DNA from: Octopus vulgaris
Lineage: Eukaryota
DNA: 64,000 nucleotides
Reading direction: 5' to 3'
Assembly: GCA_951406725.2 (NCBI GenBank)
Contig: OX597831.1
Location: forward strand, 124,001 to 188,000
How positions within the stretch are numbered: position 1 is the first letter of the stretch; each line of letters starts with the position of its first letter. The notes beneath the pieces were generated by a model that saw nothing but the letters and a program-made list of their open reading frames with translations, made no database searches and was not told the DNA's origin. Below, in pieces: positions 4,845 to 56,118 of this stretch. A program made the position numbers and the translations under genes.

Positions 4845-4925
4845 CATACTGTTACAAATGATGACCAACCCCTCTGCAAAGGAATTTTATTTAATTCTTT
4901 CGCAGGAAGGGCTAGTTCGACGAGT

Positions 4926-4999
4926 CGTGTTCTGTCCTCACCTTCGAAACACGCATTTCGAGTCGTACTAGGGACAGCTGATGAAGGGGAATTTTCCTT
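4926..4999 (+). ncRNA. Candidate non-circularly permuted hammerhead ribozyme (copy X)
   Basis: cgtGTT (4926-4931), stem I strand ctgtcct (4932-38), cGAAAcacg (4945-53), stem I partner gggacag (4971-77), CTGATGA (4978-84), then a hairpin. Folded by eye. Confidence 0.6.
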
Positions 5000-5209
5000 G
5001 TGTTGTTTGTCTTGTACTCTGTTTTTTCGTTGTTAAAAAAAGGTCCGTTTCCATGTTTGTTTTTACGTTTTCGTTTCTCGTTGAGTTCTACGTCTATTTG
5101 TGGTGTCCTGTACTCACGTATATATATTTATATATGCATGTATATATACATGTAGATGTAGGTACGTACATATATGTATGTATGTATGCATATATTTTAT
5201 TTATTACAC

Positions 5210-5283
<74 letters not shown>

Positions 5284-5352
5284 GTGGTAAGGCAACAAAA
5301 CAATGAAAGAGACCTCGATATTATGTAAATAGAGTAATTTATCTGTAAATGT

Positions 5353-5497
5353 AATATGCGACAATTATTCGGTAGCCATGATAAAACTCCGAGTTTCAGA
5401 TGCCGGCCGGATAACTGAAGAGATGGCGGTGTGGATTTCCACCCCGGCACCCGAAACTCGGAGTTTTATCATGGCTACCGAATAATTGTCACATATT
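5353..5497. repeat. Inverted repeat (perfect 38-bp core arms 5360-5397 / 5453-5490)
   Basis: gacaattattcggtagccatgataaaactccgagtttc and its exact reverse complement; flanked by (AT)/(GT)/(CA) microsatellites. Confidence 0.95.
5410..5470 (+). ncRNA. Type I hammerhead ribozyme inside a fold-back repeat
   Basis: gataa-CTGAAGA (5415-21)-imperfect stem II capped by gtgg-attt-ccac-cGAAAc (5452-57)-tcgga-GTT (5463-65)-ttatc. Stem I is gataa/ttatc. Confidence 0.65.
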
Positions 5498-5503
5498 AAA
5501 TTT

Positions 5504-5542
<39 letters not shown>

Positions 5543-16646: not shown

Positions 16647-16746
16647 ATGAGGTGGTGATAGACAGACGGACGGACAAGCAGACAGATAGATAGATAAATA
16701 GACAGACAGACAGATATGTAGATATGTAGATAGATATGTAGATATG

Positions 16747-16838
<92 letters not shown>

Positions 16839-17057
16839 CATATACATAAATGTATATACATGCACACTTATTGATTAGTTTGATATGCGTATCTAATGTT
16901 TAGTTGATTCTTTATATGTACCATTTAATTCTTATTAGAATTGTTGATTAACTTATTGTGTAATCGGGTTATAGGTGGATAAGTTTATAATAATGAACCG
17001 CGTGTAAACCTTTAGCTCTATATATTCCCAGGCAGGTTAGACTGTAGTTTTGCTACG

Positions 17058-17154
17058 AGCGTTTGACATTGTCGGAAATAATGGTCTTGCCTATATGTGT
17101 CGAAACAACGTTGATATCCGTTAGGCAGCTGAAGAGGGAATATAAGTATATTCC
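17058..17154 (+). ncRNA. Candidate non-circularly permuted hammerhead ribozyme (copy Y)
   Basis: agcgtt..[hairpin]..GTC (17084-86), ttgccta (17087-93), cGAAAcaacgtt (17101-12), taggcag (17122-28), CTGAAGA (17129-35), g, hairpin ggaatat/atattcc. Confidence 0.6.
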
Positions 17155-17697
17155 TTAGTTGGTTACGTTTCTGAGGCTAACGGATGTATTAAATACTATA
17201 TATTTCTAGACATCGTTGTTTATTGGTGTTTATAAGTTTTAGTGATTAATTCTGATATTCATTTGTGGTGTTTATCTGTAGATTTATATCAGTTTTTCAC
17301 AGATTCTTAAGTTAGACATTTGATTCTGGAATTGTTAAAGACTTTTGGCTAATTTATTTCATACCTTACTGGATTGTACTGGTTTAAGTTATTTAATTTT
17401 ATGAACATAATTTTTAGTTGAGGAGTATGACTTTGTTCATTTATGAACATAGGATATATGTGTTACCTTCATACGTACATACATACATACATACATACAT
17501 ACATACGTACATACGTACATACATACATACATACATACATAAATTCGTACACACATGCACAGATTTATACACACATGCATACATTTATATACATATTTAC
17601 ATGCATAAATACATACATATATATATATATATGCATACATAGAAAAATAAATAAATACATGCACGCATACATGCATACATATACACACATACATACA

Positions 17698-17747
<50 letters not shown>

Positions 17748-17750
17748 CAT

Positions 17751-17799
<49 letters not shown>

Positions 17800-17877
17800 T
17801 ACATACATACATACATACATACATACATACACACACACATGCATACAAATACATACATACATACATACATACATACA

Positions 17878-17908
<31 letters not shown>

Positions 17909-36761: not shown

Positions 36762-37661
36762 ATGGAAAATTTAACTAAGCCAAACATCCCTGATACAAGA
36801 GAGAAGTCCCATCACTGTGATATCTGTGGTAAGTCATTCTCTGAAAAAAGAGTCTTAACCAAACACAAAGGCATTCATACAGGAGAGAAACCCCATCACT
36901 GTGATGTTTGTGGTAAATCGTTCTCTCAAAGTGGTCACTTGACCAGTCACGTGCGTACGCATACAGGAGAGAAGCCATATCATTGCGATATCTGTGGTAA
37001 ATCATTCTCCCGTAGTAGTCACTTGATTAGTCACAATCGTATTCATACTGGGGAAAAACCATATCACTGTGATACCTGTGGTAAATCATTTTCTCAAAAT
37101 AACACTTTGATTAATCACAAACGTGTTCATACAGGAGAGAAGCCATATCGTTGTGACGTCTGTGGTAAATCGTTTTCTGAAAATAGTAAATTGACTAATC
37201 ACAAACGTGTTCATACTGGGGAAAAACCATATCAGTGTGATATCTGTGGTAAATCATTTTCTGAAAATAGTACTTTAACCACTCACAATCGTATTCATAC
37301 TGGGGAAAAACCATATCAGTGTGATATCTGTGGTAAATCATTTTCTGAAAATAGTACTTTAACTAGTCACAAGCGTATTCATACAGGAGAGAAGCCATAT
37401 CATTGTGACATCTGTGGTAAATCTTTCTCTCAAAGTGGTGACTTGACTAAACACAAACGTACACATACTGGAGAGAAGCCATATCAGTGTGATATCTGTG
37501 GTAAATCATTCTCTGGAAGTGGTGCCTTGCTTAAACACAAACGTACACACACAGGAGAGAAATCGTTTCATTGTAATATCTGTGGTAAATCATTCTCCAG
37601 AAATTGTCATATGACTAGTCACAAACGTATTCATATGGGGGAAAAAACCCTATCGGTGTGA
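36762..37661 (+). CDS. Tandem C2H2 zinc-finger protein ZNF-A (10 fingers, no effector domain); 3 further fingers out of frame to 37899
   Basis: Repeated CDICGKSFS......HKRxHTGEKPY; extra A in the run 37642-37647. Confidence 0.9.
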   Translation: MENLTKPNIPDTREKSHHCDICGKSFSEKRVLTKHKGIHTGEKPHHCDVCGKSFSQSGHLTSHVRTHTGEKPYHCDICGKSFSRSSHLISHNRIHTGEKPYHCDTCGKSFSQNNTLINHKRVHTGEKPYRCDVCGKSFSENSKLTNHKRVHTGEKPYQCDICGKSFSENSTLTTHNRIHTGEKPYQCDICGKSFSENSTLTSHKRIHTGEKPYHCDICGKSFSQSGDLTKHKRTHTGEKPYQCDICGKSFSGSGALLKHKRTHTGEKSFHCNICGKSFSRNCHMTSHKRIHMGEKTLSV

Positions 37662-38341
37662 TATCTGTGGTATATCCTTTTCTGAAAATGATACATTAAC
37701 TAGTCACAAGCATACACATACAGGAGAGAAGCCATATCATTGTAATATCCGCGGTAAATCATTCTCTAGAAATAGTCAATTGACTAGTCACAAACATATA
37801 CATACTGAGGGAAAACCATATCATTGTAATATCTGTGGTGAATCATTCTTTGAAAAAGGCCTCTTAAGTACACATGTGAGTATTCATACACAAGTGTAAC
37901 CTGTATCAGTATTAAAATTTAATTAAACATGACAACAATTATGAATATTTTGTCTGCTAAAAGCCAGGGTTTATTCCTCTTCAAGCTTAACATTATCAAC
38001 TTCAGTTTCTTGGATGTCAACATGAAATTCATGAATCACAACTTCCATATCATTTATATGTCTAAATATATCAACACAGAGATGACTTTGATTTCTAAAG
38101 ATGATTGTGCTGGATTTTTGAGGAATTTGTTATAAGAGAATAAAGGAATGGGAATAAGGAATAAAAGTTTTAAGTGACATTGATTTTGCCGTTGTTATGT
38201 TTTCATCATCATCATAATCATCCTTTAACATTCATTTTTATGCAGGTATGGGTGGGAAAGTGTGACAGGAGCCATCAAACCAGAGTGCTCCTCCCGGTTC
38301 CAGTCAGATTTGGCTTGGTTTCTTTGGCTGTATGCCCTTAA

Positions 38342-46387: not shown

Positions 46388-47753
<1,366 letters not shown>

Positions 47754-54611: not shown

Positions 54612-55629
54612 TGTAAAATAAAGTTTATTATAAACAACATGTGATACCTGTTCAATAGAAATTATCTTTATTCAATAAAAATTTAATTAAATCCAATCAA
54701 GAGTAAGTGAAATTCTGCTGAATAAAAACTAAATTAAAAATATTTATCCCTGGCTGTCTCGGCAATACTCAGAACTTTTAGGTGAGAATTTTACATAAGT
54801 AGGACACATTTTCATATGACGCCACCAGAAAATGTTACGGCAGAAATTGAATTCACCTTAATAGACGTCATTGACTGGTTGAAATTGCCGAAATGCAAGA
54901 AATTAAACAACAAATATGTTACAAACTACAGAATTTTCTCAAGAAAGCCAAGAGAAAAAGATGTTTTATAAACACATTCTACCAGTATATGAAGTTTAAA
55001 ATTTTTTAGTTACATAGAAATTATTTTAAAAATCTGCCGGTCAAAGTGGAAAGATCCCACTTGTTTTAACAAATATCATCCTGAAAATCACCTCTGTCAA
55101 TTACACGGGTGCACAAAGTACATGGGTGTTTACAGCGCTTGTGTTTAGTTAAGTGATACTTTTTAGAAAATGATTTACCACATATTACAAAGATATGGCT
55201 TTGCTATTTGCCGGTGGCACGTAAAGAACACCATTCGAGCATGATCGTTACCAGCGTCGCCTTACTGGCACCCATGCCAGTGGCATGTGTAAAAGATTCG
55301 AGTGAGATCGTTGCCAGTGCCGCCTGACTGGCCCCGTGCCGGTGGCATGTAAAAGCACCCACTACACTCTCAGGGTGGTTGGCGTTATGAAGGGCATCAA
55401 GCTGTAGAAACTCTACCAGATCAAGATAGAAGCCTGGTGCAGCCATCTGGTTCGCCAGCCCTGAGTCAAAATTGTCCAACCCATGCTAGCATGGAAAGCA
55501 GACATTAAACGATGGTGATGATGTGTGTGTTTGTGTCGAGCCAAGTCCTACAAGACATTATAATGATATTTCTTTTCTCCTGTATATGTATGTATGCGTT
55601 GAATCAAGTTACACCCATAAGAGAACGAT

Positions 55630-56118
55630 TTACCACGTGTTACAAAGATATGGCTTTACTGTTGCATGTGTATACTCGTGTTTAGTCAAGTTACTCCTTT
55701 TAGCGAATGACCTATCACAGATATCACAATCATATGGCTTTTCTCCTGTGTGAGTACGTTTATGTTGAGACAAGTTACTCCTACACGCGAATGATTTACC
55801 ACAGATATCACAACGAAACGGCTCTTCTCCCGTATGTGTACGTTTGTGTTCAGTCAACGTACTCCTTCGAGAGAATGATTTACCACAGATACCACAATCA
55901 TATGGCTTTTCTCCTGTATGTGTATGTTTGTGGTGAGCCAAGTTACTCCTACAGGAGAATGATTTACTACAGATATCGCAATGATATGGCTTTTCTCCTG
56001 TATGCGTATGCTTGTGTTCAATCAAGGTATTCCTATAAGAGAATGATTTACCACAGATTTCACAGGAATGTTGCTTCTCTCTTGAATCTGGTTTTTTTGG
56101 TTTAGCTAATTTGCTCAT
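55630..56118 (-). CDS. Tandem C2H2 zinc-finger protein ZNF-C (5 fingers; decayed fingers continue to ~55120 across a SINE D insertion)
   Basis: [26 protein letters not shown]..; a deletion in finger 6 gives CNTW*; acceptor AG at 56525-56524. Confidence 0.8.
   Translation of the reverse strand: MSKLAKPKKPDSREKQHSCEICGKSFSYRNTLIEHKHTHTGEKPYHCDICSKSFSCRSNLAHHKHTHTGEKPYDCGICGKSFSRRSTLTEHKRTHTGEEPFRCDICGKSFACRSNLSQHKRTHTGEKPYDCDICDRSFAKRSNLTKHEYTHATVKPYLCNTW

Follow-up and report, generated by a model that had tools for sequence, protein, structure and literature searches.

A hammerhead core in non-circular strand order in the 3′ remnant of a Naiad retrotransposon of Octopus vulgaris

Copy Y and its family

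The window described here is a 64,000-nucleotide (nt) stretch of the Octopus vulgaris genome (assembly GCA_951406725.2, contig OX597831.1, forward-strand positions 124,001 to 188,000). Its plus strand carries a repeat, copy Y, that is read from its relatives as the 3′ remnant of an old lineage of Naiads, which are Penelope-like retrotransposons. Within copy Y lies a hammerhead ribozyme core in non-circular order. A sequence-only reading of the window had listed GUC at 17084-86, stem I at 17087-93/17122-28, GAAA at 17102-05 and CUGAAGA at 17129-35; all are present, and the same block order was seen in a second repeat, copy X, at 4869-4989. By analogy, cleavage in Y is predicted between 17086 and 17087, as that reading had proposed. 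The order cleavage block, GAAA block, CUGANGA block (S-G-C) is that of the type-SGC hammerhead, and circular permutation cannot produce it. Copy Y is a fossil, and its family is the finding. In the best explanation, Y is a decayed and probably inactive remnant, and the S-G-C hammerhead of its parents likely self-cleaves by way of a predicted fold that includes a four-way junction where A9 meets G10.1. This explanation builds on sequence order, pairing, covariation and position in Naiad 3′ untranslated regions (UTRs). The parts of copy Y are as follows.

16953-17461, plus strand: copy Y, a 5′-truncated 3′ UTR remnant of an old Naiad lineage, delimited by blastn to sister copies
17021-17029, plus strand: strand a, pairing with a′ directly after A9 (9/9 pairs in Y; 82% paired in 23 copies; 6 base pairs (bp) in the family, 9 bp in Y)
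17030-17064, plus strand: hairpin P, which separates a from the G10.1 strand and has decayed in Y (7/13 pairs; 12 bp in the family majority)
17065-17070, plus strand: 5′ strand of stem II, upstream of the cleavage block, with G10.1 at 17065 (5/6 pairs with 17096-17101; covariation in relatives)
17072-17076, plus strand: strand d of the helix bracing stems I and II (4/5 pairs with 17117-21)
17081-17086, plus strand: 5′ strand of stem III, with U16.1 at 17085 and H17 as C17086 (3/5 pairs in Y, 5/5 in the family majority)
17087-17093, plus strand: 5′ strand of stem I (7/7 pairs)
17096-17109, plus strand: 3′ strand of stem II (C11.1 at 17101), G12-A13-A14-A15.1 (17102-05) and 3′ strand of stem III, placed by sequence and pairing
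17117-17135, plus strand: d′ (17117-21), 3′ strand of stem I (17122-28) and core CUGAAGA (17129-35), placed by sequence and pairing
17136-17154, plus strand: a′ (17136-44), overlapped by a competing, Y-specific 7-bp hairpin (17137-54), placed by folding and alignment

Stem I of Y contains a U-G pair at 1.1 and is separated from stem II by a linker of 2 nt. Stem III, contiguous in the family (GTGAT/ATCAC), is broken in Y. In an alignment Y alone lacks about 11 nt behind the core, and this deletion gives rise to the 3′ hairpin 17137-54. When 17015-17160 was folded, the hairpin reached a probability of 0.95 versus 0.01 for a/a′. Copy Y fails the descriptor of the fold. Minimum free energy folding of 17058-17154 (z -0.62) gave no support either way, and the Rfam hammerhead families at the gathering threshold had 0 matches within the window. 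A pattern written from the features of Y matched once (Y itself) versus 0 times in 500 shuffled windows, a specificity that is optimistic because the pattern was written after Y had been seen. As stem III is broken, hairpin P is decayed and a rival hairpin competes with a/a′, copy Y is probably inactive, and it is doubtful that it cleaves usefully.

Copy Y is flanked by (AGAT)n upstream (16680-16838) and (CATA)n downstream (17470-17907); one match suggests a 5′ start near 16900. Its family is old and dispersed, with 22 further matches in the 2.8-Gb genome, mostly at 66-85% identity. An alignment was made of 23 near-complete motif copies, picked by their likeness to Y. Identity to the family majority is 77% for copy Y and 72-88% for its sister copies. 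Since Y has diverged from the majority as its sisters have, no selection is demonstrable on copy Y itself; selection worked on the parent elements. The earlier proposal of selection on the fold stands across lineages but not demonstrably for Y.

When the Y family was followed upstream, sister copies L090 and L111 were found to contain a broken open reading frame (ORF) of a reverse transcriptase (RT), which ends about 1 kb before the hammerhead motif. This RT is of Naiad type with a DKA-like motif. It matches ORF pieces of a second octopus family, N, with identities of up to 51-54% and a best E of 1e-15, and it also matches proteins from public data that combine GIY-YIG and RT. One family N piece scored against RVT_1 with E 1.3e-5, under the curated cut-off. 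The distant homologues P0003 and P0005 contain PF01541 together with PF00078. No ORF remains in copy Y itself. A genome search found no young copy of the Y lineage, the exact family pattern giving 0 matches and a shorter pattern 4. Insertion traits of the Naiad kind, namely a fixed 3′ end, 5′ truncation and microsatellite targets, are seen in the N family, the X family and Y.

A split fold in octopus repeats and other Naiads

The fold was found in three repeat families of this genome, Y, N and X. When these were compared, the partner of the strand before GAAA lay upstream (GACACC/GGTGTC in the Y family, GAAGG/CCTTC in X). Hairpin P is located directly before this stem II strand and strand a before P, and a pairs with the bases straight after A9. 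There are zero unpaired bases between a, P and the stem II strand in the family majorities of Y, N and X, all of which pass the six-helix descriptor with a zero-nucleotide junction. The pair adjoining A9 is C-G (Y), A-U (N) and U-A (X) in these majorities. Helix d/d′ links the distal end of stem II to the distal end of stem I. This pairing puts the G10.1 strand of stem II upstream instead of behind CUGANGA, with two additional helices to tie it back. Helices a/a′, P and II and the core's A9·G12 arm are predicted to meet in a four-way junction at the step from A9 to G10.1.

The strands of the fold would run from 5′ to 3′ as a, hairpin P, the stem II strand with G10.1, d, the stem III strand and H17 at the cut. 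After the cut would follow the stem I strand, 0-3 nt, the stem II strand with C11.1, GAAA, the second stem III strand, d′, the second stem I strand, CUGANGA and a′. Intact family members contain stems I, II (G10.1-C11.1) and III, with the core CUGANGA, GAAA and NUH at the helix ends. These core strings were part of the search, and their occurrence in Y, X and the nine metagenome loci described below is not independent. Single copies pass the descriptor in 2/23 cases for Y, 7/30 for N and 29/30 for X, which follows the ages of the families; the low rate in Y speaks against activity of copy Y.

Family N carries the motif that ends the consensus sequences Naiad_Obim and Naiad_Ovul (Craig 2021 supplement). 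A published Octopus Naiad motif has 646 matches in the genome versus 0 for the reversed control. In family N the 3′ end of the copies falls in (TA)n, some 80 nt past the core, and the 5′ side is ragged. Family X is represented in the window by copy X, which is predicted to be cut after 4931.

4868-5230, plus strand: copy X, which holds the intact motif (4869-4989) and represents the 3′ portion of a young, non-coding repeat about 784 nt long

Members of family X share 96-99% identity, and a first look gave 3461 candidates, a figure that is not a copy number. The family consists of a non-coding 784-nt unit arranged in partial tandems with a fixed 3′ end at (AT)n. Its longest stop-free frame has 167 codons and is of low complexity. 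Two motifs each are present in L048 and L040, with L048:1353-2645 being a family X locus. The motif is the S-G-C split form, not a type I hammerhead; as in a non-LTR retrozyme, the family has non-coding tandem units with one ribozyme each. No linked ORF was seen in 30 loci, and no mobilizing partner was found. Four sequencing runs, presumed to be RNA and available as contigs only, were mapped on an X dimer and gave 0 joints and 0 pile-ups of ends. A variant at 1559 of this dimer accounts for the contig starts at 1560, and the steps in depth were unreadable. The sequence-only reading had called Y barely alignable; this is true against X, as there is no N-to-X blastn match and a hidden Markov model of the Y family misses X, but Y has a family of its own.

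Beyond the octopus, 80 metagenome loci were retrieved with an alignment of Naiad-like RT proteins (44 of 123). The loci were searched with a descriptor of stems I, II (upstream) and III, a and P, from which helix d was left out. Matches occurred on the sense strand of 10/80 loci, all behind the RT match, and on the other strand of 1/80. Nine of the ten are genuine and lie 15-522 nt after the stop codon, i.e., in the 3′ UTR. In 22 loci the RT match is followed by 1 kb or more, and seven of the nine belong to these. Stem II has 6 bp in each of the nine and a different sequence in all. C11.1 is present in 9/9 although the descriptor allowed U, and the junction has no unpaired base in 8/9. The linker between stems I and II is 0-3 nt in the examples displayed. 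L145, L147 and L189 are among the intact examples, and their cuts are predicted after L145:4642, L147:4376 and L189:2886; the candidate self-cleaving RNAs measure 105-135 nt. Helix d measures 8-12 bp (one mismatch allowed) in 9/9 loci, though it was not sought; at least 8 bp were reached in 17/3300 shuffles. Shuffled 64-kb windows gave 0.01-0.22 descriptor matches each at slightly stricter settings, and the real window gave X, not Y. Rfam ribozyme families at the gathering threshold had 0 matches in the 40 of 80 loci scanned.

Five related loci were aligned by sequence only with plain MAFFT. In this alignment 94.9% of cells pair, compared with 36-46% in slid controls. Stem II is 100% paired, with 5/6 pairs changed on both sides, and the covariation score was reached by 0/500 shuffles.

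In addition, 33 of 54 published Naiad consensus 3′ ends were read by eye, mostly over the last 450 nt; most of these Naiads were named by their order in a metadata table. The split fold was found in 8/33: Obim, Ovul, Esco (noisy), Amil, Movir-2, Plae, Dst-4 and Bfor (stem I of only 2 bp). Their hosts span five phyla: molluscs, cnidarians, an acanthocephalan, a crustacean and a ctenophore. The consulted parts of Craig 2021 (PMC8557442) describe Naiads as lacking a canonical hammerhead and flag 10 as ‘HHR_core’ and 8 as ‘HHR_half_core’ but give no structure; the flags miss Obim, Amil and Plae, in all of which the split fold is present. Nbra-3, Hpol and Smim have the canonical C-G order. The 3′ ends of Chem-4 and Movir-1 have what we take to be a twister-like appearance. 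Another motif is common to seven (CGi, Tgra, Pmar, Skow-1, Pfla-1, Pfla-2 and Chem-2), one that looks like that of hepatitis delta virus (HDV). Nothing was readable by eye in the remaining 11 of the 33.

Several further observations were made on these elements. Naiad_Lpol and Naiad_Ppla have apparently unsplit S-G-C forms with long bracing helices, which may be intermediates to the split form; stem II of Lpol is unclear, and the cleavage block of Ppla lies outside the viewed part. The 3′ UTRs of L140, L142, L153 and L167 share a motif CGGGTG...CACCTG, which looks HDV-like and lies 90-210 nt behind the RT match; seven of the published Naiads, from bivalves, hemichordates and hydrozoans, have it as well. 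Of the four loci L142 was scanned, and it gave no Rfam match at the gathering threshold. Canonical C-G core strings are found behind the RT match in L136, L144, L146, L149, L170, L182, L191 and L210, with stem II inserts of 46-103 nt. A SECIS_1 match behind a Naiad-like ORF (L155:1987-2048) fits the selenoprotein Naiads described in the consulted text of Craig et al. (PMC8557442). In L145, L147, L150, L151, L152, L169 and L201 the ORFs extend 330-390 codons beyond the RT match. Many homologous proteins have PF00443, which suggests a group of Naiad-like elements whose proteins bear an additional protease-like domain at the C terminus.

Known hammerheads, alternatives and possible role

Comparisons with known systems are drawn from the consulted parts of each source. 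Type-SGC hammerheads were met only in Eckert 2023 (PMC10085705), where they are known from metatranscriptomes, with none in genomes of known organisms; no link to Naiads was found. The split fold resembles type-SGC (HRIMA-1 and variants) in its S-G-C order, short linker between stems I and II and core nucleotides. Helix d/d′ braces the distal ends of these stems, and in type-SGC a bracing ‘interaction’ helix has been shown to be required (Eckert 2023, PMC10085705). In contrast to type-SGC, the block with CUGANGA is broken, the G10.1 strand lying upstream and joined through a/a′ and P, and the fold resides in animal retrotransposons. As CUGANGA is not followed within 1-2 nt by a stem II strand, the motif is taken to be SGC-like in its working but is not filed as type-SGC.

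The elements themselves are like the published Naiads (PMC8557442) in having a Naiad-type RT upstream, a long 3′ UTR, a fixed 3′ end at microsatellites and ragged 5′ ends, and the motif at the end of Naiad_Obim and Naiad_Ovul is a homologue of the one in Y. The position in a pseudo-long terminal repeat (pLTR) or at the 3′ end is shared with the type I hammerheads of Penelope pLTRs and animal non-LTR retrozymes, and the non-coding partial-tandem unit of family X is retrozyme-like (Li, Clavereau, Pollet 2026 preprint; Frangieh 2024, PMC11167929; Cervera and de la Pena 2020). Unlike the split fold, those type I hammerheads have the canonical C-G-S order and a three-way junction. The pseudoknot-containing hammerhead of Zhan 2024 (PMC11300833) likewise has a pseudoknot helix that braces the core. 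In that ribozyme A9 and G10.1 close one loop's short stem, and the consulted text does not speak of a permuted block order. In the literature searched, mostly non-subscription and with the figures and alignments of Eckert 2023 searched by term, neither a permuted hammerhead in Naiads nor a junction at A9/G10.1 was found.

In the proposed mechanism, the strand leaving A9 would cross into helix a/a′, which would stack on P, and the strand leaving P would supply G10.1. In this way, A9·G12 could still stack on G10.1-C11.1. Helix d/d′ would brace stems I and II as the ‘interaction’ helix of type-SGC does, and the chemistry would be ordinary hammerhead cleavage 3′ of H17.

A number of points weigh against this explanation. 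According to Eckert 2023 (PMC10085705), CUGANGA and its neighbouring paired strands are assumed to be inseparable, with insertions between A9 and G10.1 of at most 1-2 nt; the split fold conflicts with this limit, and no precedent for A9 and G10.1 on different strands was found in the literature. For another Penelope-like element, PAc, hammerhead cleavage was dispensable for insertion in vitro, and no RNA-seq ends were found at the cut (PMC11167929). Nested folding gave stem II a probability of at most 0.01 in 9/10 examples and stem I 0.0 in 10/10; since such folding cannot model pseudoknots, these values show that the fold relies on them. The motif is absent from 71/80 metagenome loci, of which 58 have less than 1 kb behind the RT match, and one descriptor match of the ten, in L144, is false, its core being in canonical order. 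Five of the helices were imposed by the descriptor, which leaves only d and the covariation as independent evidence. Pairing of d with d′ across elements reached 8 bp in 10/102, probably among kin, and the five aligned elements are close kin, so that fewer independent events underlie their covariation. The survey of published ends was unblinded and made by eye. The quick RT tree is unreliable, as 10 rows were less than half filled owing to C-terminal extensions that displaced the RT; the split label requires 2 changes on it and was not used as evidence of origin.

In the sequence-only reading, Y itself was an active S-G-C hammerhead. Its stem II, of 1-2 bp, began at the G that follows CUGAAGA, it had a distal stem III, and a switch lay upstream. 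Stem I and every core nucleotide are indeed intact in Y, G17136-C17101 and G17137-U17100 can pair, and the core is intact in 10/23 copies, though these were chosen by likeness to Y. The downstream stem II, however, is paired in 59% of cells over the 23 copies, versus 76-82% for the helices of the revised model, and in 10% in the five aligned elements; in 8/9 intact metagenome examples the base after the core is C or U, which cannot pair with C11.1. The distal stem III pairs 6/6 in Y, but it pairs in 60% of cells over the 23 copies, with two columns mismatched in the majority, and has a probability of 0.0 in folded Y. The pairing of 17021-29 with 17136-44 is real (9/9), and a constant helix of the fold is a likelier reading of it than a switch. 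The 3′ hairpin 17137-54 also pairs (7/7) but, like the distal stem III, is an accident of copy Y and not a family feature; the inserted hairpin 17067-83 can pair 6/6 in Y. Y is also as diverged as its sisters, and its own activity in this form is very unlikely.

It is very unlikely, too, that helices a, P, II and d lock the RNA into a silenced fold, with cleavage occurring only after refolding, in a dimer or with the help of a protein. Nested folding does prefer a, P and III over I and II, palindromic words follow the core in the Y and X families, and cleavage as a dimer is reportedly known for other Penelope hammerheads. Against this, the upstream strand provides exactly the G10.1-C11.1 pair that the core needs, the C11.1 strand has no other conserved partner, and d/d′ is placed where the required bracing helix of type-SGC sits. 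The motif might also be a conserved non-catalytic structure descended from a hammerhead, such as a signal for RT binding or priming. Its fixed location near the element 3′ end and the dispensability of cleavage for PAc insertion (PMC11167929) would be in keeping with this, but CUGANGA, GAAA and UH are held at exact hammerhead positions while all helices change sequence, which makes this alternative highly improbable.

For the split fold, if it self-cleaves as predicted, the role may be the cutting of tandem or read-through transcripts to unit length, likely followed by re-ligation to a circle; the chances of this are put at about even. The insertions contain an intact cut site and end about 125 nt (N), 285-340 nt (X) and 375 nt (Y) behind the cut, and some X insertions hold more than one unit. 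As the cut site is kept and some insertions are multi-unit, the template for reverse transcription would be uncut or re-ligated RNA. Circles could be copied from an internal start, and internal initiation has been shown for PAc (PMC11167929).

On balance, it is fairly probable that the split fold is a new topology active as a monomer, in which the core forms one arm of a perfect four-way junction with A9 and G10.1 supplied by different strands. This wider claim includes that the fold is widespread in Naiads from ctenophores to cephalopods, that animal genomes have in it their first ribozyme with a non-circular permutation, and that it drives the retrozyme-like family X with thousands of recent copies. 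If true, it would break the rule that CUGANGA is uninterrupted and give the best-studied ribozyme a further permutation class, one of four blocks. Non-circular permutations would move from metatranscriptome RNAs to animal genomes, in hundreds to thousands of copies. It would also explain how Naiads seem to thrive without hammerheads, in that many would carry one invisible to descriptors; other Naiads appear to hold other ribozyme classes at the same place.

Other features in the window

A near-palindromic element at 5335-5505 carries, on the plus strand, a hammerhead-like motif in canonical order (type I).

5335-5505, plus strand: type I hammerhead-like motif with stem I 5410-14/5466-70 (5/5 pairs), CTGAAGA 5415-21, CGAAAC 5452-57, a 2-bp stem III and H17 at 5465

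The window is rich in microsatellites and contains 84-bp tandem arrays at 36793-37856, 46571-47695 and 55572-56064. Arrays of this period are, we presume, typical of C2H2 zinc-finger genes.
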